Below are positions 2,887 through 61,300 of a DNA stretch of 64,000 nt, piece by piece. Source of the stretch: Squalus acanthias. Taxonomy: Eukaryota. Where the stretch lies: the NCBI GenBank assembly GCA_030390025.1, contig CM059426.1:194618001-194682000 (forward strand), read 5' to 3'. The position numbers and the translations under genes are program-made. The notes beneath the pieces are model-generated. The model was given only the letters and a program-made list of their open reading frames with translations. It searched no databases and was not told where the DNA came from. The stretch's first letter is position 1. Each line of letters opens with the position of its first letter.

Positions 2887-3540
2887 TGTGTGTATGTGTG
2901 TGTGTGCTCTTTATGCAGGGAGGGCACTCTATTGGGCATGCATTGCTTAAATTGTGGGTTGGTAACTCTGGCCACACATGCTGTCGCTTTGTTGATACAT
3001 CTCTAAGTATCTGGGATGTTCAAGGATCTCGCTCCAACAGATTTAGATCTCCACTGCTTGAGTTTTCTGTATGAAATAGCCATTTTTCTTATTTTAAAAT
3101 GCATGAAAAATTGTAACCGATTCCTGTAATACTGAGAAAACATCAACTGTAAGACGAGAAAATAAAATCTGAGTACATACACAACCTCTAAAACTATATA
3201 TGCACACCCTGCATGAATTTCAAGCACTGACAGTAAAGCCTAGGGGCAGAACTGAGACTTGAAACTGACTTTATACACCACATATTTCAAAATGGAAAAA
3301 TCTTAGCTTCTGGTTTGGAAATCTCCCTTGTACAATTTTCAAAAAATCCATGAAGCATTCTTCAGTGAGTTTTGAATTGCATTCTTTTCTGCCCTACCTT
3401 TCTCTAAGGGAACTGGGGATAAAACTGCTGAACATTTTAAATTACTTTGCATTCTAATTGAACATTTAAAAATAAAAAGTGTACATCTTTATACGTTAAC
3501 CTTCAGACTACAATTGTAACAGATTTGCTTAACACTGTAC

Positions 3541-3700
3541 AATAGCAAAATACTGCGGATGCTGGAAATCTGAAATAATGACAGGAAATGCTGGAAACAC
3601 TCAGCAGGTCAGGCAGCCTCATGGAGAGAGATACAGAGTTAACGTTTCAGGTCTGGGACCCTTCGTTCTGCTGAGTGTTTCCAGCATTTTCTGTTATTTT
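3541..3700 (-). mobile_element. Short Penelope pLTR-derived fold-back insertion
   Basis: Reverse complement of the 3' end of the Penelope element at 57320-57453 plus an inverted tail; flanked by imperfect direct repeats TGCTTAACACTGTAC (3526-3540) and TGCTGAGCACTGTAC (3701-3715). Confidence 0.8.
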
Positions 3701-4526
3701 TGCTGAGCACTGTACCTGATCTCGTCCTGTCTTACATAACACCTTGTTGAAGGGAAGAAGTTCTATATGGCTTTATGCGCATAATTAAGCCATAAGCAAT
3801 TTGTTACTTAAATTTTTTTTTGACTTCTCATGGTGAAGAGCTAGTGAATTTTTAAAAATTAAAATCCAAAAGTCTACTATTTCCATTCACATAATCACTG
3901 AAGCAGAAATTCATGATGTCACATCAGGAAGATTCTTACACAAAATATACATTCCCTATTTGCCTTTAACTGGTAAATTTAAGTATAAACATAGTAATAA
4001 GGGACAACTGAGACACTTCGGTAAATTTATAGACCGTAACATTTAGAATTATGTGACAAGTTAATACAATACACTTCCACTGTAATGAATATTTAAATTT
4101 CTGCTGATTTGATTTGGTTTTACATTTATTTTAATTGGTACCAGCCTGAAACTTAACTTTGGTTTGCAGGTGAGGAACATTGACTTTAACAACTTCAGGC
4201 CTTAACCACAGCTCCCATTTTCTCTTGGACAGCAGGCACTGCTAATGTGGGATGAGCACTCTGAGCTCCTGGGAATGGGGGATGTGTGGGCTGTTGCTTG
4301 GAATGGGGATCCCATATCAGTTTACGGCCAGTGGGCTGGTCCCGCACCCCTGGTGTCTACCTGTGTTTTTCTTCTGCCACTTTCCTGGTGGATGGGAGCC
4401 GTTACCAGACTTTCCACTTCCTATAGAAGTCTTTCTTTCTTATTGCTTCCCACACCCCTCTCCTTTCCTGTTGTAACCATTCACACATGCTCTGGCCACG
4501 TCTTTTATTTCTCCAACTTCTCTCAT

Positions 4527-5430: not shown

Positions 5431-5444
5431 TGCCTTATATATGT

Positions 5445-5566
5445 AATAAAAACAGAAAATGCTGGGAATACTCAGCAGGTCAGGCAGCATCTGTGGAGAG
5501 AGAAACAAGTTAACGTTTCAGGTCGATGACCTTCAAGATTTCCAGCATCTGCAGTATTTTGCTTTT
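5445..5566. mobile_element. Short Penelope pLTR-derived inverted fragment
   Basis: Minus-strand pLTR (GTTAACGTTTCAGGTCGATGACCTT) joined to the plus-strand terminal GATTTCCAGCATCTGCAGTATTTTGC. Confidence 0.7.
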
Positions 5567-7218
5567 GTATGTATGTCTATATATGTCACACTTCCTTTTG
5601 CCTTGCACCATCATGACTTCTGTTATTTAATCATCTCCTGCTCGCCATCTAATCACAGACCTCTTTTTTTCTTCATCCACCCTAAGTCCCTCCTTATAAG
5701 CTGTTCATCTGTAATATCTTCCAGTTCTGACAAAAGGTCATTAACCTAAACATTAACCCTACCTTCCTCTCTCCACAGATGTTACCTGACCAGCTGAGTG
5801 TTTGTTTCTTCCCCCCCCCCCCCACCCCCTCAGATTTCCAGCATTTTTCTAGTATAGGTTAGCGTTTCTAAATCACCCAAGAAATTCATATTTCTTTGTA
5901 TGTGTGGTGGCAGCTTAGTCAGAATGCTGATGAATGCAAACCATACCCATTGCACTGAATCACTGAAATAGAACTTGCTTAGTCATGCATGAAGATGAAG
6001 GTGGATGTATAAAGTAGGTCAGAAACCTTGGAATACAAGCAAATAATTTATGTAATGTATCTAGGAGTTGGCCAGAGCTAAACAAAACAAAAGACCTCAT
6101 CATTTTGGAGAAAAGTTTTAAGCCATTACAAATGATATATTTGAAAAATACACTATGCCCATCTTTCCATCATTCCTAAAGAAGTTATTTTGAACTACAG
6201 AAAGTGCAATAATTTGTTTCCGAAATAATTCTTTTGAGATTAGTGAGTGTAATTGCTCACTGTAAAACAAGACTAAACCTGAATAATAATGGAATAATTT
6301 GCTATGTTAATAGATGAGAAAAAGTATGTAAAGGTTATGGGACAAGGCCTGTCTAAAATCTAGCCTAATGCTCTGTATATAGGCTGGCTGAATTTATCAT
6401 CAGTTTAAATCTGCTAGTTAAGAAAATGTGACCAGTTTTTATGTACCAAATCAGTACCTAGTTAAAGACGAGTTAGCTCAGGAGTAGATTTTATGTAAGT
6501 ACCAAATTGGACAGTTGTATCATCTTTGCTCCACACAACAGCATAAATGGTATCATTTAGTTAAATGTGCACTAGAAATGTATTCAATTGTCTCCTTGAT
6601 GTATATGGGACTGCTTGCAAGCAAATGTGAACCTGATTTAGGCAAACTAGTATGACAGACTTTAGGCCAAAGCACGGTCTAAAATGGGTGGGGTGGTGGG
6701 GGAGGCGGGAAAGTTTGGTCTACTAACTTGAAGGAGGTAATGGACCAACAGAATTCCTCACTTAATTAGAGAAATCAAGAAGGGTAGCCAAAAGATTTGC
6801 CAAAGGTATTTGGGCAATTTAATTGGTTCACCTTCTCCTTGAACTGACTGATTCTTTTTTGACTGGAGCTTTTTAAAAAAAAATTATACTTGTCGATTTG
6901 TAACTGTTCTGTGAATATGATATTTCAGACAAATGAGGGTAAAACTGGCTACAAATTAGCATGAGTGATACTAAAGCACAAGATAAAATGTAACTTTTAT
7001 GTAATAAATGTGTTCTTTCAGCTCAGAGTGTCATTTCATCAAAATACATTTGATTTTTACCAGTTATATAATAAGCAAATTCATAGCATTGTTATGAAGT
7101 TTTCAGAAACAGTTTAATATTGCAAATTTACCTCTCCTGGAAAGATATATACGAATTCAAATATATTATCCAAATGTATGGACGGGCAGATGTCGATGAT
7201 GAAGTCCAACACCGCCTT

Positions 7219-18989: not shown

Positions 18990-19725
18990 CCCCAACTCAG
19001 GGTATATCGGCAGAGGGTCAGCTTCCTGGACATGTCTGAACTCCAGTGCCTCAGGAGACTCGGTATCGCGTCAGGTGGTCGCAGACATTTGCAGCCTCCT
19101 GGAAGAAGACCTCCTGCCCAGTGTAACGCGTGGGCATGCTTTGCCAGTGGCTGTCAAAGTCACCACCGCCCTCAATTTCTTCGCCTCTGGCTACTTCCAG
19201 GGATCTGCAGGCGATATCTGCAGAATCTCACATTCTGCTGCCCACTCAGGTGACCGATGCCATGTTTGCCAGGGTCGGCAATTATGTGCACTTTGCAACA
19301 GATGAGGCCAGTCCGAATGAGCGGGTGCTCGGCTTTGCCACTCTGGCTGACTTCCCACCGGTCCAGGGAGTCATCAGTTGCACACGTGGAGCCTTCATCA
19401 ACCACAAGGGATTAAACTCCATCAATGTTCAGCTTGTACACAACCACAAAAAGATCATCATGCAGGTGTGTCCAAGGTTCCCAGGCAGCTGCCGTGATGC
19501 TTTCGTCCTGCTCCAGTCCACCCTCCCAGAGCTCTTCGGATCTCAAAGCAGAGTTAGCGGCTGGCTCCTTGGAGACGAGGGCTACACCCTGAAGACGTGG
19601 CTGATGACACCGGTTCGGAGCCCAAACAATGAGGCCCAGGAGAGATGCAGCCAAAGCCACGGGAACTGCCATCGAGCAAGCACTCGGAATGCTGAAGATG
19701 CGCTTTAGGTGCCTGGACAGATAGG
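18990..19725 (+). pseudogene. Harbinger (HARBI1-like) transposase pseudogene
   Basis: Homology is spread across the ORFs at 18822, 19075 and 19130 with frameshifts; the first catalytic Asp motif has decayed (GVISCT). Confidence 0.8.
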
Positions 19726-28594: not shown

Positions 28595-31500
28595 TTTACA
28601 TATGAACATCCAAAAATGATGGTCTGGAAAAGACCAGCTGGCCCATCAAGCCTGCCCCACACTCATGATCCCTGGAGCATCGTGACTAAACCCTTCCTAA
28701 CAGCCGCCCCCCCCCCCCTCCCCCCACATCGCAAGTATGTAATCTCCTGGGAGAGGTGAAAAACCCAGGGCCATTATAGGAAAAATAAATCTGGAAAATT
28801 CCGCTCCGATCCCCTCAGGCAATCAAAACCAGTCCAGGAGAGCACATTGACCATGCATGCATTACTTAGCTTCACTTAAATCCACTTAGCTTTTCTATAA
28901 TGCGATCTCTGCCCCAGCCAAGAACTGGCACAACTTCCATTGAAGGCTTACAGAGAGTCAGCACACAAGCTGACAAAGCATTCCAAAGGTTCACTACTCA
29001 CTGGGGAAAAGAAAAACTGCCAAACACCTAGTTTGTTCCTACTTCTGCGAAGTTTAAACGCATATCCCCTGGTCCTACTCAATCTGGCATATCCCCTGCT
29101 CCTACTCTGCAGCCAAGAGCATGCCAGGGTAAAGGACATCATCTCTGGGCTGGAGAAGAACTTGGAGGGGGGAGGATCCAGTTGTCGTGGTCCACGTAGG
29201 TACCAACGACATAGGTAGGACAAAGAAAGAGGTTCTGCTGAGAGAGTTTGAGCAGCTATGGGACTAAATTAAAAAGCAGAACCACAAAGGTAATAATCTC
29301 CTGGATTATTACCTGAGCCATGAGCAAATTGGCATAGGGTCAATAGGATCAGGGAGATGAATGCGTGGCTCAAAGATTGGTGTGGGAGAAGTGGGTTTCA
29401 ATTCGTGGGGCACTGGCACCAGTACTGGGGAAAGAGAGAGCGGTTCCGTTGGGGCGGACTACACCTGAACCATGCTGGGACCAGAGTTCTAGCGAATCGA
29501 ATAACTAGGGAGGTAGATAGGGCTTTAAACTAAATAAGGCGGGGGGGGGGGGGGAAGGTCCTGGGGGGAGAGAAATCTAGAATGCTAAAGAGAAAAGACA
29601 AGGAAGCAGTGTAGGAAAGTGATTGGGGTAAGGATAACCAGATTGTGTTAGGAAGGGACAGAGCGTACAAACAAAAGAGTGCACTAACAAATAGGGTTCG
29701 GGTAAGAAAAAATGGTAATAAGACAAATAGGGCTATAGTACAAAAAAATGTTAAGATGTCTAAAAATGTTAAAAAGACAAATCTAAAGGCACTGTATCTG
29801 AATGCACGAAGCATTCGTAATAAGGTAGACGAATTAACAGCGCAAATAGATGTAAACGGATACAATATAATTGCAATTACGGAGACATGGCTGCAGGGTG
29901 ACCAAGGCTGGGAGCTGAATATCCAAGGATATTCGATATTTAGGAAGGATAGGCAAAAAGGAAAAGGAGGTGGGGTGGCGTTGTTAGTAAAAGATGAAAT
30001 CAGAGCAATAGTGAGAAAGGATATTGGCTCAGAAAATCAAGATGTAGAATCAGTCTGGGTGGAGCTAAGAAGCACCAAGGGGCAGAAAACATTGGTGGGA
30101 GTTGTCTATAGGCCTCCAAACAGTACTGGTAATGTAGGGGACGGCATCAAACTGGAAATTAGAGATGCATGTAACAAGGGTACTACAGTAATCATGGGAG
30201 ACTTTAATCTACATATAGACTGGCCAAACCAAATTAGCAATAATACTGTGGAGGATGAATTCCAGGAGTGTGTACGAGATGATTTTTTAGACCAGTATGT
30301 TGAGGAGCCAACTAGGAAACAGGCTATCCTAGATTGGGTATTGTGCAATGAGAAGGGGTTAATTAATCTTCTGCGGGGTCCTTTAGGGAAGAGTGACCAT
30401 AACATGATAGAATTCTTCATTAAGATGGAAAGTGAAGAAGTCCAATCGGAAACTAGGGTCCTAAATCTAAACAAAGGAAACTACGATGGTATGAGGAGTG
30501 AGTTGGCTATGATAGATTGGGGAGCTTCATTAAAAGGCATGACGGTGGATAGGCAATGGCTAACATTTAAGGAATGAATGCATGAATTCCTTTCTGGTGC
30601 AAAAACACAAAAGGAAAAGTGGCCCAACCATGGCTAACAAAAGAACTTAAGGATAGTATTAGACCCAAAGAGGAGTCATATAAAGTTGCCAGAAAAAGTA
30701 GCAAGCCTGAGGATTGGGAGCAGTTTAAGAGTTCAGCAAAAAAGGACCAAGAGGGGAAAAATAGAGTATGAGAGTAAACTTGCAAGGAACATAAAAGTGG
30801 ACTGTAAAAGTATCTACAAGTATGTAAAAAGAAAAAGATTAGTGAAGACAAATGTAGGTCCCTTATAGTCAGAAACGGGACAATTTATAATGAGGAACAA
30901 GGAAATGGCAGAGCAATTAAACAAATACTTTGGTTCTGCCTTCACAGGAGAGGATACAAATAACTTCACAGAAATGCGAGGGAACCAAGGGTCTAGTGAG
31001 AAGGAGGAATTAAAGGAAATTAGTATTAGTAAAAAAATAGTGCTGGAGAAATTAATGGGACTGAAAGCTGATAAATCCCCAGGGCCTGATAATCTGCATC
31101 CCAGAGTACTAAAAGAGGTAGCCATGGAATAGTGGATGCATTGGTTGTCATCTTCCAAAATTCTATAGATTATGGAACAGTTCCTGCAGATTGGAGGGTG
31201 GCAAATGTAACTCCACTATTTAAGGAGGGAGAGAGAAAACCGGGAACTACAGACCGGTTAGCCTAACATCAGTAGTAGGGAAAATGCTAGAGTCTATTAT
31301 TAAGGATGTGATAACAGGACACTTGGAAATTATCAATGGATTAGACAAGGTCAGCATGGATTTATGAAAGGAAAATCGTGTTTGACAAACCTACTGGAGT
31401 TTTTTGAGGATGTAACTGCAAGATTGGATAAGGGAGAACCAGTGGATGTGGTGTATTTGGATTTTCAGAAGGCCTTTGATAAAGTCCCACATAAGAGTTT

Positions 31501-34100
31501 AGTGTGCAAAATTAAAGCACATGGGATTGGGGTAATATACTGGCATGGATTGAAAATTGGTTAACAGACAGGAAACGGAGAGTAGGAATAAATGGGTCTT
31601 TTTCGGGGTGACAGGCGGTGACTAGTGGGGTACCACAGGGATCAGTGCTTGGGCCCCAGCTATTCACAATATATATCAATGATTTGGATGAGGGAACCAA
31701 ATGTCAGCAAACTTGGAATATTACGACACAAAACTAGGTGGGATTGTGAGGAGGATGCAAAGAGGCTTCAAGGCGATTTAGACAAGTTGAGTGAGTGGGC
31801 AAATACATGGCAGATGCAGTATAACGTGGATAAATGTGAAGTTATCCACTTCGGTAGGAAAAACAGAAAGGCAGAGTATTATTTAAATGGTGATAGATTG
31901 GGAAATGTTGATGTACAGAGGGAACTGGGTGTCCTTGTACACCAGTCACTGAAAGCAAACATGCAGGTGCAGCAAGCAGTTAGGAAGGCAAATGGTATGT
32001 TGGCCTTCATTGCAAGAGGATTTAAGTACAGGAGCAAGGATATCTTACTACAGTTGTACAGGGCCTTGGTGAGATCACACCTGGAGTACTGTGTGCTGTT
32101 TTGGTCTCCTTACCTAAGAAAGGATATACTTGCCATAGAGGGAGTGCAGCGAAGGTTCACCAGACTGATTCCTGGGATGGCAGGACTGTCGTATGAGGAG
32201 CAATTGGGTCAACTAGACCTGTATTCACTAGAGTTTAGAAGAATGAGAGGGGATCTCATTGAAACGTATAAAATTCAGACAGCTACAGACTGGATGCAGA
32301 GAGGATGTTTCCCCTGGCTGGGGGGTCGAGAACGAGGGGTCACAGTCTTAGCATACGGGGTAGGACATTTAGGACTTGGATGAGGAGAACCTGTGGAATT
32401 CTCTACCACAGAAGGCTGTGGAGGCCAAGTCACTGAATATATTTAAGAAGTAGATAGATCGATTTCTAGACACAAAAGGCATCAAGGGGTATGGGGAGAG
32501 AGCGGGAATATGGTATTGAGATAGAGGATCAGCCATGATATTGAATGGTGGAGCAGGCTCGAAGTGCCGAATGGCCTACTCCTGCTTCTATTTTTCTATG
32601 TTTCTAAACTGAAATTCCAAGGCCACTATATCACCCACCATGGGAGGGCACCAAAACTGGTGCAATACTCCAGATGTTGTCTAACCAAGGGCCTGTATAA
32701 TGACAGAATGGTGTCCATTGATTTGTACTGAATGGTTCTATTAATACAACCCAATACTGTACCTTGTTTGCTTTGCTTACAGCTTCTCTGCATTGGTTGT
32801 GAACTTTGAGCAATCTGTGCACAATAACATCTAGATCCTTTTGTCTTTCAGTATTGTTCCCTGCAAATTATAGGTATATTCTGTGTTGGTCCATCCCACA
32901 TGCATCACTGCATTTATCTGGGTTAAATGCCATTTGCCATTGTTTGTCCTATTCATCTAGTGCATCTAAATCTATTTGCAGAAGATTGATTTCCTCTACA
33001 GACTTGACCCTTGCACAAATTTTAGTGTCATCAGCAAATGTATTCACCATACCCCCAACAGCGCTATCCAGACCACTAATAAAAACAGCGAACTGCAGTG
33101 GGCCTAACATCGATTCCTGGGGGGCACCACCAGAAACTACCTCCAGGCTGATCCACAGCCACCAACTACAACTTTTTGCCTGTGGAATTGGAGTTAATCC
33201 CTAATCCAGCCTATCAACTTCCCACTGATACCACAAGATTCTGTCTTGTGAAGTAATCTATTGTGAGGTACTTTATCGAAGGCTTTCTGAAACTCTAGGT
33301 AAACAGTGACAACCGGATTTACCCTCGTCCACTAATCTAGTAACTTCTTCAAAAAACTCAAATCAAGTTTGTAAGACATGACCACCTTTTCCAGAAGCTG
33401 TGTTGAGTATCTCTCAAGGCCCCTTCTCTTTCCCAGTGCTCATAAGGAACATCCCTTAGGATCCCTTCAAGCATCTTCACCATGATGGGTGTTAGGCTGA
33501 TGGGCCTGCAGTTCCTTAGCTCTGATTTGTCCCTGTTTTTTTTTGTGAAAATTGTAACGACATGAGCTGCCTTCCAATCTAAGGGAACTATCCCTGACTC
33601 TGTTGAGCTATTGAAGATGTGGGCAAGGGGCTCACAGAGCACCTGTCCCATCTCTTTAAACACCCTTGGGTGGATGCCATCTGGACCTGGAGCCCTATCT
33701 AATTTGACATTTCCTATTCTATCCAAGATGGCATCTTTATCTCTTTTTTAACATTTGTAATGCTGTTTAATACAGGGCATCCCACAGCTGGAACATGAGC
33801 ATCATCCACAGGTGTAAAGACTGATGTGAAATAATCATTTAGCAGCTCTGCTAAAACCTGAGAATCAGTTTGAATCTGTCTTTCAGTTGCCCAATAGGAT
33901 CTTTAACGGTCTTCTGACTCCTGACGTTGCTGAAAAATCTTTTGCTATTAATAACAACAGTTGTGCACCATCTTCTTTTCCAGAGATCTCTTAGCTACTA
34001 TAACGGCTGCTTTTGTCCCCCTCAATTGCTTGTGATATTCCTCCCTATTCTCCTGTGCGTTACATTCCTTAAGCTTTCTGCTTCAATCTAATGTGTCTGT
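28595..34100 (-). mobile_element. Older CR1 LINE (28595-29105 and 32606-34100) split by a younger CR1
   Basis: 3' UTR at ~28600; RT fragments RAPGPDGIHPRVFKEM...CRPISLT...SCLTNLI on the minus strand at 33358-33726. Confidence 0.8.
29115..32605 (+). mobile_element. CR1 LINE: partial ORF1 (SGNH esterase-like) plus disrupted ORF2 (APE endonuclease-RT)
   Basis: LKALYLNARSIRNK..IAITETWL..GVVYRPP..IMGDFN..SDHN; DKSPGPD; YLDFQKAFDKVPH; stops and frameshifts; tail TTCTATGTTTCT. Confidence 0.95.
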
Positions 34101-34589: not shown

Positions 34590-34726
34590 TGATTTCTGAT
34601 GAAAGGTCATCGACCTGAAACGTCAACTCTCTTTCTCTCTCTACGGATGCTGCCTGGCCTGCTGAGTTTTTCCAGCGTTTTCTGTTGTTATTTCGGATTT
34701 CCAGCATCTGCAGTATTTTGCTATCG
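34590..34726 (+). mobile_element. 137-bp Penelope pLTR insertion beginning at a hammerhead motif
   Basis: 14-bp TSD TAGTAATCCAGAGG (34576-34589 and 34727-34740); homologous to 57320-57453. Confidence 0.88.
34594..34626 (+). ncRNA. Minimal type I hammerhead ribozyme motif (GUC site, truncated stem I)
   Basis: CUGAUGA-A-AGGUC-AUC-GACCU-GAAA-C/GUC. Confidence 0.6.
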
Positions 34727-35459
34727 TAGTAATCCAGAGGCCTGGACGAATGTAACTCCAGTGACTTGAGTTCAAATCCCACCACGGCAGTTGGGGAATT
34801 TAATTTCATTTAAATAAATCTGGAATTAAAAAAGAAAAACTAGGGTCAGTAATGATGACCATGAAAATACTGCATTGCCATAAAAACCCATCTGGTTCAC
34901 GAATGTTCTTTTAGGGCAGGTAGTCTGCTGTCCTTACCTGGTCTGGCCTATATGTGACTCCAGACCCACAGCAATGTGGTTGACTCTTCACTGCCCTTCT
35001 CAAGGACAATTGGGGATGGGTAATAAATTTTTATTCATTCACGGGATGTGGGCCTTACCAGCGACGCCCATGAATGACTAAAAAAAGATGCCCCGTATTC
35101 TTTACTTACCTGCAAGTTCCCTATTAACTGCTTGCTGTGCATTCAAAATATAGTGCTATGATGGCGAGTAGATCAGTTTCAGAGCACAAAGTAGAATGGG
35201 ATGGCTTTACCACCCAATAGCATTTCATGTAAAGAGTGAATGGAGCATGTAAGTGCTATATTATAGATGCTAATTAAACAATTTTGGGGGTAGGAGTGCT
35301 CAAAGGCTTTATTCATTTCGGGTACTTGCCAATTTCATCTGTATGCTTCCTGATATGGGCATCTGCTAATATTAAGCCCTGTTTTTTAAAAAAAATTTTG
35401 GTAAAAACTATAAGCCATGTGAAATTTATGGTATGTTAAAGTATAAACTCATTTTAAGA

Positions 35460-38400
35460 AAGAGATATACAGCACAGAAAGAGGCCCTTCGGCCCATCGT
35501 GTCCGCGCTGGCCATCAAGCCCTATGTATTCGAATCCCATTTTCCAGCACTTGGTCCGTAGCCTTGTATGCTATGGCGTTTCAAGTGCTCATTTAAATGC
35601 TTCTTGAATGTTGTGAGGGTTCCTGCCTCTACCACTCTTGTGTGTTCCAGATTCCAACCACCCTCTGGGTGAAAAAGTTTTTCATCAAATCCCCTCTAAA
35701 CCTCCTGCCCCTTACCTTGAAACTATGCCCCCTGGTTATTAACCCCTCTACTAAGGGGAAAAGTTCCTTTCTATCTACCCTATCTATGCCCCTCATAATT
35801 TTGTACACCTCAATCAGGTCCCCCCTCAGCCTTCTCTGCTCTAAGGAAAACAACCCCAGCCTGTCCAGTCTCTCATCATAGCTGAAGCGCTGCAGCCCAG
35901 GCAACATCCTGGTGAATCTCCTCTGCACCCTCTCTAATGCAATCACATCCTTCCTATAGTGTGGCGACCAGAACTGCACACAGTATTCCAGCTGAGGCCT
36001 AAAGAGCGTTTTGTACAGCTCCATCATAACCTCCCTGCTCTTATATTCTATGCCTCGGCTAATGAAGGCAAGTATCCCATATGCCTTTTTAACCACCTTA
36101 TCTACCTGTCCTGCTGCCTTCAGGGATCTATGTACATGCACACCAAGGTCTCTCTGATCCTCTGTCCTTCCTAGGGTCCTACCATTCATTGTGTATTCCC
36201 TTGCCTTGTTCGTCCTCCCAAAATGCATCACCTCACACTTTTCAGGGTTAAATTCCATTTGCCACTGTTCTGCCCATCTGACCAACCCGTCTATATCGTC
36301 CTGTAGCCTGAGGCTTCCCTCCTCGCTATTTACCACTCCACCAATTTTCGTGTCATCTGCGAACTTACTGATCATACCTCCTACATTCATATCTAAATCA
36401 TTAATGTACACTACAAACAGCAAAGGACCCAGCACCGATCCCTGCGGTACACCACTGGACACAGGCTTCCAGTCACACAAACAACCTTCGACCATCACCC
36501 TCTGCCTCCTGCCGCTAAGCCAATTTTGGATCCAATGTGCCAAATTGCCCTGGATCCCATGGGCTCTTACCTTCTTGACCAGTCTCCCATGTGGGACTTT
36601 GTCAAAAGCCTTACTGAAGTCCATGTAGACTACATCAACTGCACTACCCTCATCCACACACCTGGTCACCCCCTCGAAAAATTCAATCAAATTGGTTAGA
36701 CATGATCTCCCCCTGACAAAGCTATGCTGACTATCCTTGATTAATCCTTGCCTCTCCAAGTGGAGACTAATTCTGTCCCTCAGAATTTTTTCCAATAATT
36801 TCCCTACCACTGATGTTAGGCTCACTGGCCTGTAATTCCCTGGTTTATCCCTACTACCCTTCTTGAATAATGGTACTTCGTTAGCTGTCCTCCAGTCCTC
36901 TGGCACCTTCCCTGTGGCCAAAGAGGTTCTGAAAATTTGTGTCAGAGCCCCTGCAATCTCCTCCCTTGCCTCACACAGCAGCCTGGGATACATCTCGTCT
37001 GGGCCTGCGGATTTATCCACTTTTAAGCCCGCTAAAACCGCTAGTACTGTGAAGGAATACGCCATATTCAGAAAAATACACCATCCTATGAAAGAATTTT
37101 GACTTTATTAAAACTTGACAAACTGGGTTTGAAAATCTGGAAGCCTCAACAATCTAAAGCTGTGAACAGCATACAGGCTTTTGAGATAAGATAAGTTGTT
37201 GACACTGAAACAATAGCCTTAATGAAACAAAAGGTTAAAGGTTCCTGGAAGTCTGAAGCTTGGAAAGAACACAATGGTATACCCAGTTGAAGTGTCTTAA
37301 ACCAACACTTCGTAAAGAAACACAGAAAATTAAAGAAACATATGCCTTCGTAAATATGACATCAAATGAAACACGGAGACACGATTATGTGTTGCAACCA
37401 GTTGAGGTAACTAAGAAGACAATGGTGCAACCAGCTGAGGTGTTCTAAATGCAAAAGATACAAACAGAAAACCTTGGTAAGAAAGACATCAAATAGATGC
37501 ACCAGCTCCACACCGCTTTTTATGATAAGCTTCGAACACCTAAAGGTAGAGACACAAGTCTGCTTGCTACAAGCTGATCTAACTAAGAATAGAAGGGGTC
37601 AGCAGAAAAATGACTAGAGATAATTAACTTACATCAGCAGAAAACTTCAAAGGAAATACCACTGAGAAAGGGTATAAAAATTGGACTTTCAAATGGGAAG
37701 ACAGATTCGCTGTAAAGGAGCAAAGCGATTCTCAGGCTTCAGAGACAAGCTCTAAGTCTTTAACTCTTTGTATCTCGGGGATCAAAAAGGTACTTGTATT
37801 TGATTTTGGTGGATATCCTGGAATAGACTAAGAAATGTAAAAAGTTGATTTGCGAATAAGGATCTCTGATAAGATTGTAAAAGCTTTTGTATTTGGAACT
37901 GTTAATGTTGCGATTGAAATACTTACTGTAACGACATGTCGGTTCTTTAATAAATCTATATATTTTTAGAATTGTCTCACATAGTACTTCTGTATCAAAC
38001 TCGCAAACTCAATCTCTGTACACTCTTTGGTGAGGAGTTGCAGAATTCTGAGGGAATTTTCGGACCCTCATAAAATCCTGGAACGTTACAGTCTAGCTAA
38101 ACTTATTATAAGTGCTATCTGGAGGATGGTAACATCTTCAGGCTGTTCCTTTAGGGAGAGATAGTCTGGACCTTTAGACCCAATTAAGCATCTTTAGGAT
38201 TCAGCTACCTCTAACTTTAGTTGAAGGTGAACGTCTGGGGAATACGCCTGATCTGGGTGAGCCCAAAAGGGGCTAGGACTAGTAATAATCCCTTCAGTAC
38301 CTCCTCCCTCTCAATACTAATTTGTTCAAGTATATCACAATCCCACTGCATGATTTCTATGCCTACATCGTCCTTCTCCATAGTGAACACAGATGCAAAA

Positions 38401-39795: not shown

Positions 39796-40537
39796 CAGCG
39801 CTACTTAGCTTGGCCACTCAACCTTATTTTGTGAAAGTCAAGCAGGTGCGTTTTAAATATAGGAACTTCCTATTTGATTTCATAAATCTTTGTAATAAGG
39901 AGGAAGATTTTATTAACTTTCAACTATTTTACAACTGCCGTCAGCGCAACTGATGTGGTGGGGTGGGGAAATCCTAATGGGACAAAAGGTGAATTTGTAT
40001 GTGAACAGTATTCTATTTGTGACGCAATGAAGTATTTATTTAGCAATTTACCGTACTGTAGTATCTCTTTAACCCTTTCCCCCATGGTAGGGCATTTCAA
40101 GCCCCGTCTGTTTCCTTGTCCAGCACGCTGATTCTATATTGTGCCCCTGGCATTGGTTTGGTGTCAAAAATGTTACACCCAGGCAGAGGGGAGAAAAGGG
40201 TGCAGTGTCTGCACAACATGGATTTATGATCAGTGTTCCAATAATTTCTATAGTGGTTAATTTTGCAATATTGAGGCCAGACTCTAACCAAGTAGCTATA
40301 ACCTCCAGTGCATTTGCCGTTGAACAATTAGGAAGAATGAGTGAACAAACCTGCATTTATATAGCATCTTCACATCATCAGGACATCCCAAAGCACTTCA
40401 CAGCCAGTTAAGTACTTCCTAGTTGCTGGTGGCTGAATGCAACTTTTTGTTCTTGAGAAGTTAATGATTAGGTAATTGGCTACTTCAACAAAGCTCTTCA
40501 CCTCCCTCAGGAGATTCAAAAAAACGTTGGCAAGAGC

Positions 40538-40575
40538 AGTTCTGATGAAGGGTCATACGACCTGAAACGTTAACT
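40538..40575 (+). ncRNA. Minimal hammerhead ribozyme motif in a Penelope pLTR fragment (40538-40640)
   Basis: AGUU-CUGAUGA-A-GGGUC-AUAC-GACCU-GAAA-C/GUU-AACU; stem I AGUU:AACU. Confidence 0.65.
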
Positions 40576-41352
40576 TTTATTCCTTTGTCCATAGATGTTA
40601 CCTGACCTAAATGTTTCCAGCATTTTCTGTTTTTATTTCAAAGTTCAGATTGTCCATTACCTGTTGATGGGCCAGTTGTCCTTTTCTTGGGCCAGATTTG
40701 TTGTTTCATGAGTTATCATTGCTTTATAAGTGTTTAGTGTAAACACTGAGTGGGGGGGAAAAAAGATTTTTTTTTGGTAGAACTGACCACCCATTTCCTC
40801 TTCTCCCCCTCCGCATTTTCTCCCATACCATACTTATGAGCAGCAAGCCCCAGCTGCACCATCCTTCTCTCTTGCGAACCTTCCTACCCAGCACACCCGC
40901 TAGCCTCACCAACCTTTATTCTGTGCTGCTCACCCCCACCCACCACTGCCCCTTTGGACTCTGACAGCAGATCAACGATCACTGCCCCTCTCTGCATTTC
41001 CCTTCAGAATATTCGTTCACTCACGATCAGGACCCTTGCCACCTACTGCCTTCTTGTGGGTCATTGCATTGACATCCTGGTTTTGACTGAACCTTCATCG
41101 TGGGGATTGACACCTTGCCCTTTAACAAAGCCTGCCAACCAGGCTATACTTTCCCCCCACCTGCCCTACTCAAAACCATTACAATGGTGGTGTGGCCTTT
41201 ATCACCAAGTTGCACTTCTGTCTCTTTCCTTAGTCCTCTGGCACTTTATCCTCCTTCAAGCACATCACCTTATTCCACCCATCTCATCTCCTTCCAAATC
41301 CTTATTGTTTACTGCCCCCACCTCCCACCCACCAAGCCCTACCCTGAGATAT

Positions 41353-41871: not shown

Positions 41872-42693
41872 GGGCTGGATTTTCAATGACCCGTGGAGTC
41901 GGGTTTGGAGGTGTGTGGGGGGTTAAAGTTGCAGATTCGGGGGTCCCGCCTCCATGCCAGTTTCTCTGGCGGCGGGTACCTGACCTGTGCCTGGACCCGC
42001 CTCCCCGAGGCGGGAAGGGATTAGTGACAATTAACTGCCTGTTAACAGGTAGTTAACAGGCAGTTTTTTGGATAATCCCTATTTTCATTGCTGAAATGTG
42101 GGCTTCCCGACAGGTGGCGACCACGCCAAGTTATCGGGGTGGACCGTGGGTCTGCAGGGGTTGGAGGGGTCGATATGTCCGGTGGGCAGGTGAGTGATGG
42201 GTGCATGTGTGCAGAGGTAAGTGTGTAAGGTAAGTGCTAAGTGTTGGAAAAAGTTTTACTTACCTTAACTTCCTCCTGCAGGTGTCAGCCCTTCAGTTCT
42301 CGGGAGTCAGAAATCTCACCAGCACAGAAAGCAGAAAAGCCGTGGTCCTGTCAAAAACTGCAGCCTTCTGTTTTCTGTGGTGGAATGATTTCTAACTCAG
42401 CCTGAGAGGAAGGACTGAAGTTAGAAATCATATTGTCAATGTTTGACAGCTTCACAGAGCTGTCAAACGCTGATATTTCATCTGTCAAAAGCTCTTGACA
42501 GATGAAATGTCAATCTGTGACGTCACCTGTTGCCGGGTGGCCCTTAATTGGCCTGCTGAGCCCACTGGGCGGGCTCAACAAGGTCAATCAAGGGAAAATA
42601 CAGTGGGTTGGCCACATCTTGATGGAGGCGGGTTTACAAGCCAGAATGTGTGATTCCCGACCCCAACCCGACCCCAGTTTCAAAATCCAGCCC
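41872..42693 (+). mobile_element. Harbinger-type MITE, 822 bp, copy 2
   Basis: Perfect 12-bp TIR GGGCTGGATTTT...AAAATCCAGCCC; 3-bp TSD ATT; interrupts L2. Confidence 0.9.
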
Positions 42694-46077: not shown

Positions 46078-47076
46078 ATGTGTTTCTTTTTTGCTCCTAG
46101 CTGGGTTGAAAATGAAAGGGCTTGATCTCTAACCCTCTCCCAGCTTTCTGTTTGGGGATTGGTTCGCCAAGCTGCCAATCAAATAGGCTACCACCTTCCC
46201 AGGTGAGGAGTTCTGGAAACTAACCCCAGCTGAACTCAAATGGATGGGACATTCCAACATCTTGTGCGAATGTTTACTGGAATCTGTTTAACAAGCCTCT
46301 GTTGTCTCGAGCAATCTAGCTAAGCGCTTCATCTCAATCTAATCTGCATTTCTTAGAAGCTGTATTTTGTAGATTTAACCTCTTTGAACTGAACATTTTA
46401 TTTTAAATTAGACCAAAATAGTTCCACAGGCAAATGGTCAGAAGGACCAATTTTTGCAAACCCTGAACATGACTTGGAACAAATTGCACAAGCAGACTTC
46501 AAAACTGAATTTCTGAAGCTGAGTGGAAAGATTTTATTTTTACTCTGCATCGAAGGTTGCTGAATCAGCATAAACAGGCCAATTCAGCACCAACAGAAGC
46601 CGACTCAATTAATGATGCAGCTCCAGTAGAAGAAGCTCAATAATTTAAAAAGGGCATTAGAGATGTCATAAACAACAGGATCAAAGTTGCAGCCGTCGGA
46701 GCCTTTGAGATTGGTCCTAACTTTCACTGCTACCTGATTTTTGAAACAAATCTCATTTGTTTAGCATTCGTCAGCTGCAAGGTTTTTTTTTATTCGTTCA
46801 TGGGATGTGGGCGTCGCTGGCAAGGCCAGCATTTATTGCCCATCCCTAGTTGCCCTTGAGAAGGTGGTGGTGAGCCGCCGCCTTGAACCGCTGCAGTCCG
46901 TGTGGTGATGGTTCTCCCACAGTGCTGTTAGGGAGGGAGTTGCAGGATTTTGACCCAGCAACAATGAAGGAATGGCGATATACTTCCATGATGTGGAGAT
47001 GCCGGCGTTGGACTGGGGTGGACAAAAATGAGAAGTCGCACAACACCAGGTTATAGTCCAACAGATTTATTTAATT

Positions 47077-47115
47077 TTACAAGCTTTCGGAGCAGTTCGC
47101 TCCTTCGTCAGGTAA
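47077..47115 (-). ncRNA. Mirror-image minimal hammerhead motif on the minus strand
   Basis: Exact reverse complement of 47153-47191. Confidence 0.7.
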
Positions 47116-47152
47116 GTTTAGCAGTGAGAGAACTCACTGCTCACTGTTAAAC

Positions 47153-47191
47153 TTACCTGACGAAGGAGCGAACTGCTCCGAAAGCTTGTAA
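47153..47191 (+). ncRNA. Minimal type I hammerhead ribozyme motif
   Basis: UUAC-CUGACGA-A-GGAGC-GAACU-GCUCC-GAAA-G/CUU-GUAA; stem I UUAC:GUAA; loopless palindromic stem III. Confidence 0.7.
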
Positions 47192-47509
47192 AATTAAATA
47201 AATCTGTTGGACTATAACCTGGTGTTGTGCGACTTCTCATTGATATACTTCCAAGTCAGGATGGTGTGTGACTTGAAGGGGAACTTGGAGGTGTTGGTGT
47301 TCCCATGCGCCTGCTGCCCTTGTCCTTCTAGGTGGTAGAGGTCGCGGGTTTGGGAGGTGCTGCTGAAGAAGCCTTGGCGTGTTGCTGCAGTGCATCTTGT
47401 AGATGGTACACACTGCAGCCACGGTGCGCCAGTGGTGGAGAGAGTGAATGTTTAAGGTGGTGTTCCCCATGGTTATTGCTATATAGGCTTTCTTTGTATC
47501 TTTGTGGAG

Positions 47510-55555: not shown

Positions 55556-57453
55556 GAATATAAACCGAAAATTCTGGAAATAACTCCGCAGGCCAGGCAG
55601 CATCTATGGAGACAGAAACAGAGTTGACGTTCCAGGCTGGTGATCTTTCCTTTGAACTGAAAAATGTTACAGATGTAACGGGTTTTAAGCAAGCACAGAA
55701 GCTGGGGAGAGGGGAGGAAAGAACAAAAGGGGAAGGTTTTTGATGGGGTGGAAGGTGGGAGTGATTAAATGAACAGCAGAATCGTTACCAGCACCTGCTG
55801 TCTCAAAAAATGGGAGCACTTTACAACATGTTGAACTCTGTTGTGTCCAGAACGTTGTAAAGTGCCTAATCGAAAGATGAGATGCTGTTCTTTGAGCTTC
55901 ATTGGAAAGAAATGGAGATAGAGAAGTCGAGGAAGGGAAGGGAAGAGTCGGAGATGGACCATGTGAAGGCAAGGGAGGGGTAGAAATTTGAAGCAAAGTT
56001 GATGAAATATTCCAGTTCGGGGTGAGACCAGGAAGCGGCACCAATACAGTCATCAGTGTATCAGAAAAAGAGGTGAAGGAGGGGACCTGAGTAAGACTGG
56101 AACAACTAATGCTCCATGTATCCTATGAAAAGGCAGGCATAGCCAGGACCCATAAAGGTTCCCATAGCAACACCTTTTATTTGGAGGAAGTGAGAGGAGT
56201 CAAAGGAGAAGTTGTTCAATGTAAATACAATTTCAGCCAGGCGGAGGAGGGTGGTGGTGGATGGGGTCTGGTTGGGCCTCTGTTCAAGGAAGAAGTGGAG
56301 GGCCCTCACGCCATCCTGGTGGGAGTGGAGGTATAGAGAGACTGGATGTCTATAGTGAAAAGGAGACGGTTAGGGCCAGGAAACTAGAAACAGTTGAAGT
56401 CAGTCCTACTTGGGTCTCCTCCTTCACCTTTTTCTCCGGTACATTGATGACTATCAGTGCCGCTTTGTGCTTTCGCCCTGAACTGGAAATTTTCACCAGG
56501 TTTGCTTCAAATTTCCACCCCTCCCTCGCCTTCATATTGTCGATCTCTGACTTGACCCTTCCCTTCCTCAACTTATCTATCTCCATTTCTGGGGGATAGG
56601 CTGTCAACCAATATCTACTATAAGCCCACTGACTCCCACAGTTCCCTTGATTACCACCAAACACATTTTTTCCCCTCCCCTTTCAGCATTCCGAAGAGCT
56701 GTTCCCTCCGCAACACCTGCTCCCCTTCCCACCACACCTTCCCATGCAAATGCAGGAGATGAAATACCTGCCCTTTCACGTCCTCCATCCCATCGTCCAG
56801 GGCCCCAGACACTCCTTTCAGGTGAAACAGCGATTTACTTGTTGTACTTTCAGTTTAGTATATTGTATTCGCTGCTCACGATGCGGTCTATACTGGGGAG
56901 ACCAAACGCTGATTGCATTGCTGAACACCTCCGTTCAGTCTGCAAGTGTGACCCTGAGATTCTGGTCGCTTGCCATTTTAATTCTCCGTCCCACTCCCAC
57001 TCTGACCTCTCTATCCTCTGCCTCCTACACAGTACCAATGAAGCTCCACGGAAGCTCGAGAAACAGCACCTCATCTTTCTATTAGGCACTTTCCATCCTT
57101 ACGGACTCAACATTGAGTTCAACAATTTCAGATCATAACCTCTGCCCCCATTTTTTTGGACAGCAGGTGTTGGTATTGATTCTACTGCTCATTTAATCTC
57201 TCCTGCCTTCCACCCTATCGCAGACCTTCCCTTTTTGTTCTTTCCTCCCTTTTCCCCCCCCCCACCACTTTCCCTGCCCCTGCACTTTCTTAAAATCTGT
57301 TACATCTCTAACTTTTTCCAGTTCTGATGAAAGGTCATTGACCTGAAACGTTAACTCTGTTTCTCTCTCCACAGATGCTGCCTGGCCTGCTGAGTATTTC
57401 CAGCATTTTCTGTGTTTAGTTCAGATTTCCAGCATCCGCAGTATTTTGCTATT
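55556..57453. mobile_element. Penelope-like retroelement with inverted arrangement (minus ~55556-56400, plus ~56400-57453)
   Basis: RT motif NNFSFDSSHFLQIKGVAMGTFMGPGYACLF (minus); GIY-YIG-like FQVKQRFTCCTFSLVYCIRCSRCGLY (plus); pLTRs at both ends; 14-bp TSD GTATGAAAAAGATG (55542-55555 and 57454-57467). Confidence 0.9.
57320..57356 (+). ncRNA. Minimal hammerhead ribozyme motif in the Penelope pLTR
   Basis: AGUU-CUGAUGA-A-AGGUC-AUU-GACCU-GAAA-C/GUU-AACU. Confidence 0.7.
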
Positions 57454-59375
57454 GTATGAAAAAGATGCTTTAAGCCAAGGTGTCAAATACCCATATGTAT
57501 CACCTCACTATATCATCATATTTATTAATCCTTCAGTAAAGTTAAGTGTGTCTGGATTGAGGTGATGAGGTATTGCCATTTGAAATGTCTGTATTTCAAG
57601 ATCAAATGGCAATATCTCTTCACCTCACACCTACATTCCTGCTTCAGTGAAACCCTACAGCTGAAAGAGCAGTGTTCCTTGCTTTTAAGGTTTAAAATTT
57701 TAGCCTTCGTACACCTATAGCTAATATTTCCAACTTTTCAGATCCAGCATTCTTTTAACAGTGGGCCCCCTGCATTGCTGATTTAAATGGGTTCACTCAC
57801 TGCAGTGATTGCTTGGCCTGTTACAAGCAGATGCCATAATTAATGTCCCTTTTAATGTAAGAATGTGCGCTTAAATTATATACCTTTTTAGGTATTGATG
57901 AGGGTCGTGAAATGTTTTGTTAAAGTTGATGTGCATGGTTTGTGCAGTTTGCGTGAAGACCACTATTTCTAGCAGACAAAGATTAAGCTGAAGTGTCACA
58001 GTCAATTTAAGACATTACACGGTACCTCAATGACAAGTCTTATCAGCAAGATGTAACGCACCAACATTAACTTCGACAGGAACCCTTCCTGTAGCTTGCT
58101 ACCAAACATGATGTTGTGCATGGATAAACCTGATGGCAATGTTGCTGCATACTGTTGACAGAACTACGTGAGTATTATGACACAGGCATAAGGTTTTTGT
58201 AACATTGCTGGCATGCTCCCAGTTTATAAAGGGGATGTTTTAGACAGTTGCCATATTTTGCCTGTGTGATATGCGTCCTAACAGTCCATATAGCCATTCG
58301 CCAAATGATAAATGGAAGTTAAACAAATGCCTATAGTACGACTGACTTAATCACTTCAATTATTTTATATTTGATAAGATCCCTCTTCCTAACTCACTCA
58401 TACCTGTAGTGTTTGTGAGTGGTGGACTGAGACGCGACTGGAAACAATGTGGGCATGCACCATCACCTTTGGATTACTCCATATCCACTTTATTCTCTAT
58501 GTAGTTAATTAAGCTGACTGCTGTTCACTTGGCTTCCTTACTGACTGATGTGTTTCAAGCACGGGAATACTTGCTCTGCTGTATATGTGTTTCCTCTAGA
58601 GGCAGCTTTTACTCTGCGTTTCTTAACCATTGCTATGTTTGAAAGTAATTTGTTACGGGCTGCAGGTGAATGAGTCACTTTTTAATTTCTTTGAAGTTGC
58701 TTTAAAAAGAAACTTAACAAGCAGAGACATATAATAAATGTGTTTGATATGGCACTGACTGTTGGCAGGTAGTGGTGGGATTACCACCGATGACGTATTG
58801 TTGCTGCTGCACAATTTAATTGTCCCCTTGTGGCGTTACCAAGTAAAATGAAATAATGTAAATGTTTGTCCGCCTAACTGTATGTGTTGTATATTTATTG
58901 TTGGCTGATGCCTGTGTAGACCATCCCAAGCAGTAAAAGGTTCCCGTCCCACTCCGCTTTTATTTCCATTGAAACACTTGTTGAGGATCAGGCTCTGATA
59001 TTTGAAGAGATGACACCCAGTGCAGTACAGAAAGCCAATATATTCATGTCGGAGTGTCCAAATTCTCTCTGTTCATGGGCACTCAGTTGCTTTATCGTGG
59101 AGCTCATGGGCCACCTACAAAACATACATCAGGATTTCTTACTTTTTTTTGTCATATCCCTTTAATGCTTTGCACTTTTTCACCCCCTCTATCCTTGCCC
59201 CCCTCTCCCCCCAGTTAAAGTAGCATTCTTATCTCCCCCTACCCCACCCCACCATCCTTCAATTTAATTCTGGTAATCTCTTGCCATTGGCACAGCTCCT
59301 CTCTCCTTTCCCTCAGTGCTGCTGCCTGTTACTACGTCCTGCTACTGCATGCTGTGGATTGGAATTTCTGATGTA

Positions 59376-60779: not shown

Positions 60780-61300
60780 ACTACAACAACAGCAACTTGC
60801 ATTTATATATATCTTTTTAATTAGTTCACGGGATGGGGGCGTCGCTGGCAAGGCCAGGCATTTATTGCCCATCCCTATTTGCCCTTGAGAAGGTGGTGGT
60901 GAGCCGCCTTCCTTGAATACAACTGCGTGACTTGCTCGACCATTTCAGAGGACAGTTAAGAGTCAACCTACATTGCTGTGGGTCTGGAGTCACATATAGG
61001 CCAGACCGGGGGAAGGACGGCAGATTTCCTTCAGGCATTAGTTTACGACAATCATGGTTTTTTTCATGGTTTTTATTGCAGATTTTTAAATTTAATTATA
61101 ACACCTTTAACATAGCAAAACGTCCCAAGGCACTTCACAGGAGCGATTATCAAACAAAATTTGACACGGAACCATATAAGGAGATATTAGGATGGATGAC
61201 CAAAAAGCTTGGACAAAGAGGTAGGTTTTAAGGAGAGTCTTAAAGGAGGAGGGAGAGGTTTAGAGGTTTAGAGGGGGAATTCCAGAGCTTAGGACCTATA
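60780..61300 (-). mobile_element. L2 3' end with a nested SINE fragment (~60815-61095)
   Basis: CAACAACAGCAACTTGCATTTATAT L2 tail; SINE tail CACGGGATGGGGGCGTCGCTGGCAAGGCC; L2 resumes at ~61100. Confidence 0.65.

Follow-up and report, generated by a model that had tools for sequence, protein, structure and literature searches.

A 253-nt insert with inverted arms and opposite-strand minimal hammerhead motifs in Squalus acanthias, read as a 5′-truncated Penelope-like element insertion

The locus

The window (the whole 64,000-nt stretch of Squalus acanthias DNA that was analysed) contains a short insert made up mostly of two inverted arms, lodged in a high-copy host repeat and flanked by a target-site duplication (TSD). 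Its features are listed here from left to right, with the host repeat first.

46786..47460, minus strand: host repeat, high-copy; summed contig depth in the millions, against about 15 in the flanks
46977..46988, no strand: left TSD copy, an exact repeat that is not extendable; all four runs have contigs with the empty-site joint (265 nt skipped)
46989-47241: the insert, 253 nt, between two exact 12-mers
46989..47026, minus strand: tail, 38 nt at the 3′ end that remain unpaired, taken to be the ‘tail’ of a Penelope insertion
47027..47128, minus strand: left arm, a 5′-truncated pLTR end in the element sense, continuous with the tail; summed contig depth very high
47077..47115, minus strand: minimal type I hammerhead motif from the motif scan; predicted cut between 47081 and 47080
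47120..47146, no strand: junction, with a 9-bp hairpin, a 4-nt loop and a 7-nt duplication
47140..47241, plus strand: right arm, an inverted copy of the same pLTR end, ending exactly at the tail boundary
47153..47191, plus strand: minimal type I hammerhead motif from the motif scan; predicted cut after 47187
47242..47253, no strand: right TSD copy, the exact 12-bp repeat; same empty-site joint

The arms are 102 nt each and pair at 101 of 102 positions, the sole mismatch being 47121/47147. No other near-perfect inverted repeat in the window is as long, the runner-up having arms of 33 nt. Folded as RNA, the insert is predicted at −197.9 kcal/mol with ~106 base pairs (z = −27.9), and none of 200 shuffles was as stable. 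An initial annotation of this DNA had already described a 253-bp insert with a 12-bp TSD and 102-bp arms differing at one position, and we confirm those coordinates and counts. The arms are as it described them, but it overlooked that the symmetry of the insert is broken by the 38 nt (46989-47026) lying outside the palindrome. Its view that the insert is non-coding holds as well, since six-frame translation gave no reading frame across the whole insert and no ATG-started frame longer than ~40 codons. A DNA transposon or MITE was considered and rejected, the arms being internal and offset by the one-sided tail.

Two other palindromic features of the window may be recorded here: a GC-rich, imperfectly palindromic repeat of ~300 nt (1672-1973) that has inverted repeats nested inside it (arms of 33 nt near 1780) and may be MITE-like, and a 42-nt palindrome at 42471-42512.

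The TSD 12-mer, GATATACTTCCA, occurs twice in the whole window, as the flanking pair and nowhere else; when random 12-mers were drawn as a control for chance, none in 20,000 draws recurred in the same geometry. Public DNA contigs from all four runs (2, 4, 5 and 7 contigs) join 46976 directly to 47242, and the length that they skip is 265 nt, that is, the 253 nt of the insert plus 12. These contigs most likely represent other copies (paralogues) of the high-copy host repeat. They carry the host repeat uninterrupted and with a single 12-mer, and the duplication is therefore a genuine insertion scar.

The host repeat ends sharply at 46783-85, beside a T run, and a 92% copy is found at 60814-60917; we take the host repeat to be, probably, the 3′ fragment of a LINE, although it has no domain match. 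The window also contains LINE remnants in opposite orientation at 29615-32383 and 35629-37104, with endonuclease and RT fragments on the plus strand and a 491-aa RT frame on the minus strand. A further frame at 19127-19705 holds a DDE_Tnp_4 transposase fragment (E 1.4e-13) and is presumably Harbinger-type. Pfam domains were matched by 4 of the 144 window frames of at least 80 aa, all four by other transposon domains and none by a host-gene domain (short exons would escape such a search); GIY-YIG was matched by 0 of the 144.

Hammerhead motifs

The motif scan bears out the annotated hammerhead motif on each strand. On the plus strand, stem I pairs 47153-56 with 47188-91 (4 bp), and between its two sides lie CUGACGA (47157-63), an extra A (47164), stem II (47165-69 with 47175-79), GAA and the loopless palindrome AGCU (47183-86). 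Stem II has 5 bp and could be extended by a G-U pair. The minus-strand motif is the mirror of this one, from 47115 to 47077. The layout first given for the motif had the core elements right but left out the extra A at 47164. Minimal hammerheads of Penelope-like elements (PLEs) are characterized in PMC4209133 by an extra nucleotide between 9 and 10.1, G10.1-C11.1, a palindromic 15.2-16.2 and a short helix I, and the motifs here have the extra nucleotide at 9/10.1, G10.1-C11.1 and a palindromic, loopless helix III.

Other hammerhead-bearing copies in the window belong to another family, as had been supposed, for no BLAST alignment between the insert and that family was better than E 0.19. Beyond the window, a hammerhead pattern scan returned two loci in metagenome contigs, and none in viral contigs or prokaryotic genomes.

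L001:594-637: related minimal hammerhead in a metagenome contig of 1,050 nt
L002:594-738: related minimal hammerhead in a metagenome contig of 1,470 nt

In these two loci stem I of the motif is compensated and loop II is shorter, and the likeness to the insert is confined to the 38-nt motif; the frames upstream of the motif in L002 (4 of 6 scanned) gave no Pfam match. A pattern scan for the tail matched 12 prokaryotic loci, which were rejected as chance, being matches of 19-26 nt with nothing beyond, and 0 viral contigs.

The initial annotation had proposed stem I and II covariation as a check on the ribozyme. We aligned the two arms, one metagenome motif (that of L002, identical to that of L001, was left out) and three motifs from the other hammerhead family in the window, giving six rows of which five are distinct. 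Two-sided changes occur in 8 of 11 pairs across these five distinct motifs, and 98.2% of the cells pair, as against at most 43.6% when the pairing is slid; the set is small and spans families, with three of the five distinct rows coming from one family. As a comparison of sequences, this covariation supports the fold class rather than the activity of this particular copy. Another check proposed, a covariance-model scan, did not recover the motifs: there was no Rfam hammerhead match on the window, nor on a single arm at E up to 10. Rfam hammerhead models expect a full helix III, and the missing match is only weak evidence against a minimal hammerhead. When two monomers are cofolded, they are predicted to pair across the palindrome, at −25.7 kcal/mol against 2 × −11.0 kcal/mol. 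For PLE minimal hammerheads, PMC4209133 reports that a single motif does not cleave and that dimers cleave at a low level.

Tail and central junction

The 38-nt extension belongs to the element and continues the arm in many copies of the family. In run X1, the best-matching run, 106-120 contigs have variants at 47027/47028 that lie 32-33 letters from contig ends, and these contigs therefore cross the border between tail and arm. Runs X6 and X8 come from two related organisms; there the tail is matched by 43 and 55 records, respectively, which diverge once past 47026. We read the tail as marking the 3′ end of the element, with the main copy on the minus strand; on that strand the order is inverted arm, centre, hammerhead-bearing arm and 38-nt extension.

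This order is a familiar one. PLE insertions are described as highly 5′-truncated, often with an inverted 5′-truncated copy adjoining the 5′ end and with a tail of 30-40 bp at one end (PMC8557442); the tail of 30-40 nt on one side recurs in PMC3846280 and PMC11167929, the former also reporting head-to-head units with 8-10 bp TSDs and palindromes at the junction, and PMC8969392 treats such forms as routine peculiarities of PLEs. The tail of the present insert, at 38 nt, falls within the range for endonuclease-positive PLE insertions. The adjacent copy is inverted, 5′-truncated and head-to-head, the 5′ side of the motif facing the centre on both strands; the TSD is exact over 12 bp; and a hammerhead lies in the terminal repeat, as judged by motif scan and covariation. 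The earlier claim of a TSD-flanked insertion with Penelope-type minimal hammerheads is thus supported by both the geometry and the motif features.

What had been called an 11-nt loop is the 11-nt centre 47129-47139, which does lie between the arms but is no plain loop. Positions 47120-28 pair perfectly with 47133-41 to give a 9-bp hairpin whose loop has 4 nt (47129-32), and 47133-39 recurs directly at 47140-46 as a 7-nt duplication, with the sole arm mismatch adjoining it at 47147. The plus-strand DNA at 47100-47141 is predicted to fold into a hairpin of −10.5 kcal/mol. The centre looks like the scar of a snap-back followed by slippage.

Sibling copies in the window

The copies of the window's other hammerhead family, aligned to a reference copy at 57200-57460, show how a related kind of insertion is built.

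3538-3707, minus strand: 128-nt main arm with a head-to-head inverted arm of ~40 nt
5439-5571: inverted body of 95 nt joined to nothing but the tail (36-39 nt)
34594-34728: plain stump with no inversion, with an exact 14-bp TSD (34576-89 / 34727-40)
40537-40656, 55564-55761, 57200-57460 and 5693-5803: more decayed or longer copies, with intact cores at 40542 and 57324

In the first of these the inverted arm ends ~32 nt before the 3′ end, near the tail boundary, and there is a candidate 8-bp TSD (3533-40 / 3708-15). The second, with a low-complexity candidate TSD of 9 bp (5436-44 / 5578-86), is a twin-priming-like inversion whose break lies at the tail boundary. The plain stump begins a few bases upstream of the core, and in 5 of 7 other aligned copies, too, the start of the copy and that of the core are no more than 10 nt apart (reference positions 120-132, with the core at 125). 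The outer geometry stays constant from copy to copy and the centre does not, the pattern to be expected if each insertion forms its own junction.

Abundance of the arms and rarity of the junction

The arms belong to a repeat of very high abundance, whereas this particular junction is rare. In run X1, summed contig depth rises from 14.7 in unique flank to 373,340 within the arm (position 47117) and is 59.8 in the centre (position 47136); these values are not copy numbers and leave some joints uncounted. The fall from arm to centre is ~6,000-fold. The centre depth is about four times the single-copy depth, and 23 of the 59.8 belong to a variant with a 2-nt deletion. A few sister copies with the same centre may therefore exist.

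These figures bear on whether the palindrome could itself be mobile, a low-copy non-autonomous element (a hairpin mini-PLE, or something retrozyme-like) that is transcribed, silences both of its ribozymes with its own antisense and is re-inserted whole by Penelope enzymes. Such a mobile hairpin would be the head-to-head counterpart of retrozymes. It would account for the clean TSD around the whole unit and for the intactness of both motifs, a centre depth near four times single-copy would suit it, and non-autonomous PLE derivatives are on record (PMC8557442; bioRxiv 10.64898/2026.07.22.740005). Against it, an independent element should be present as many copies with the same centre and ends, and summed depth, taken as a proxy, gives instead the ~6,000-fold drop, with the centre variant included in what remains. 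The siblings in the window have different centres, the known non-LTR retrozymes of the bioRxiv report are head-to-tail with same-strand hammerheads, and a 100-bp hairpin is predicted to bury the motif. We regard this explanation as very improbable. The initial annotation's treatment of the palindrome as a unit of its own is not supported, in view of the published PLE geometry, the rare junction between abundant arms and the sibling insertions with other centres.

Perfect palindromes are a known class of artefact, and no single listed contig spans the entire stretch, so an assembly or sequencing error, namely a fold-back chimeric read, has to be weighed. Folding back of a read would not give an exact 12-bp TSD, an asymmetric tail, a mismatch between the arms or siblings with the same offset, and 47136 is covered by contigs in run X1, which is possibly the assembly's own sample. 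We consider an artefact extremely improbable.

Age

The insertion had been called young. A single mismatch in 102 makes this plausible, but it would also fit an insertion as old as the split from the related organisms: the orthologous flanks differ by ~3.5% from those of two related organisms (18/511 and 18/494), and an insertion of that age would show at most 1 mismatch in 102 with P = 0.13. In these organisms, 47136 is crossed by records of 88% or higher similarity, with depths of 2.42 and 17.9, against ~5 and 15 for the flank. Such roughly single-copy cover could reflect an older, shared insertion; the flank contigs of the related organisms end within the host repeat. In run X5, a second sample of the same organism of which ~55% was read, 47136 is uncovered, as is part of the unique flank.

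The family itself differs between the lineages. The form with a 5-nt loop II is dominant in run X1, where the base at 47098 is absent in only 42,958 of 619,912 depth, and rare in the two related organisms, where it is absent in 42,103 of 42,445 and 48,455 of 48,667. This contrast suggests a lineage-specific expansion.

Proposed formation

We interpret the insert as a dead-on-arrival, 5′-truncated PLE insertion whose mirror half was made in the same event, not inherited from a palindromic parent (probability about 0.87). Membership in the PLEs is argued from the terminal structure and the motif. The TSD is observed; the reverse transcriptase and GIY-YIG endonuclease would be supplied by an autonomous PLE elsewhere in the genome. 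This enzyme would place nicks on the two strands of the host repeat, staggered by 12 bp. The left nick would prime a cDNA at the tail end, running as plus strand from 46989 through the arm, and the right nick would prime a second cDNA at an inner start site 38 nt in, running as minus strand from 47241. Both cDNAs would end ~17-29 nt past the hammerhead core and would meet head to head, their joining involving a short snap-back with slippage, to leave the 9-bp hairpin and 7-nt duplication; here the geometry is observed and the order of steps is conjectural. The hammerhead would be a passenger of the pLTR.

The step with a second primer is modelled on the PLE protein of Anolis carolinensis, PAc, which according to PMC11167929 nicks and extends both target strands in vitro, is predicted to be a dimer, and has two start sites for reverse transcription, which set the limits of the tail. 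Two such start sites would yield an inverted arm lacking exactly the tail. We met no proposal of twin priming for PLEs in the literature, a statement that covers titles and the openings of abstracts in a non-exhaustive set.

The mirror half could also have been made by fold-back copying: a single tail-primed plus-strand cDNA would fold back at the 4-nt loop, slip by 7 nt and copy itself to the tail boundary, after which the endonuclease would resolve the product. Fold-back copying fits the perfect 9-bp hairpin with its 7-nt duplication, and the equal reach of arms that are identical at 101 of 102 positions, as well as two primers do. Antisense self-priming has been proposed for head-to-head PLE junctions (PMC3846280), as has, for the tail, resolution by the endonuclease (PMC8557442). 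Fold-back copying would, however, call for a further step to make it halt precisely at the tail boundary, a start site of reverse transcription in vitro (PMC11167929), and the inverted arm of the sibling at 5439-5571 has no counterpart in the tail-bearing arm of that copy. That sibling cannot arise by simple fold-back of one tail-bearing cDNA, and two primers are therefore favoured. Given a by-product of PLE insertion, we put two primed cDNAs at slightly better than even odds and fold-back copying of one cDNA at slightly worse than even; taken over all explanations, fold-back copying is a serious but tentative candidate.

Read-through RNA

The head-to-head arrangement means that, whichever side transcription comes from, the antisense arm is the first to be made. 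In predicted folds the probability of stem II is 0.000 for both full-length strands and for all four plus-strand prefixes tested, and 0.93-1.00 for RNAs that start at the centre. The suggestion that read-through transcripts of either strand sequester the ribozyme is thus upheld in silico. On these models the ribozyme of this copy is probably catalytically silent in read-through RNA and without a function of its own. In the Anolis system, PMC11167929 reports hammerhead cleavage to be dispensable for insertion in vitro.

It had also been suggested that the locus is transcribed and that its long hairpin is a substrate of Dicer or ADAR, from which small-RNA silencing of the family would follow. 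A fold of this stability and length would be suited to such a role, and small RNAs from rotifer Penelope copies have been reported (PMC3846280). The property would, on the other hand, be common to any transcribed inverted repeat rather than specific to this insert, and the window's 144 frames contain only transposon domains, with the reservation about short exons already made. We think such a role unlikely.

A microRNA-like hairpin was rejected as a class for the insert, which has no Rfam match and whose arms are a high-copy repeat. Elsewhere in the window, a short hairpin at 57549-57637 (arms of ~19 bp, 57564-57621) has sub-threshold Rfam microRNA matches.

Comparison with known systems

The architecture is not new, both inverted, tail-offset PLE insertions and pairs of minimal hammerheads on opposite strands having been published. 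The family may be undescribed by name; supplements of the cited papers may list it or similar minimal hairpin inserts. With geometry and motif pairs already in print, a single locus is of minor importance. What value it retains is that of a single observation on how Penelope insertions come by their inverted copy. A purely computational test of two-primer synthesis against fold-back copying would be possible in genomes rich in young stumps, and on this choice the examples in the window point both ways.

The closest published geometry is that of Adineta vaga Pen2a/Pen2 (PMC3846280; scheme in PMC8557442), which shares the head-to-head inverted 5′-truncated copy, the one-ended tail, the TSD around the whole unit and the palindrome at the junction. 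The TSD is 12 bp here and 8-10 bp there, and, unlike those insertions, both copies here are only 102-140 nt and free of ORFs, so that the entire insert is a near-perfect hairpin. It is in effect the shortest version of the published scheme.

Non-LTR retrozymes (bioRxiv 10.64898/2026.07.22.740005) are, like the insert, non-coding, hammerhead-bearing and PLE-derived, but are described there as head-to-tail tandem units each with a hammerhead, whereas here the arrangement is head-to-head and each strand has a single motif. Assignment to the retrozymes was rejected, as the insert is not tandem and its hammerheads do not share a strand.

The motifs agree with the PLE minimal hammerheads of PMC4209133 in the CUGANGA core, the extra 9/10.1 nucleotide, G10.1-C11.1, the loopless palindromic helix III and the 4-bp helix I. 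They differ from the Schistosoma families in helix II, which has 5-6 bp here and 7-8 bp there. Dual minimal hammerheads on opposite strands, ~100-700 bp apart, are already reported in that paper; the cores of the present insert, known as predicted motifs, are only ~45 nt apart.

A further related system is PAc, a Poseidon-type PLE (Frangieh et al. 2024, PMC11167929), with which the insert shares a pLTR hammerhead and a tail. The tail of PAc is defined by two start sites of reverse transcription, and its nicking and extension of both strands would lead readily to a structure like the present one. The PAc data were obtained in vitro with full-length protein, and they extend to the inverted-copy step at this insert by analogy. 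PAc prefers AT-rich ATT sites, whereas the target here is only moderately AT-rich.
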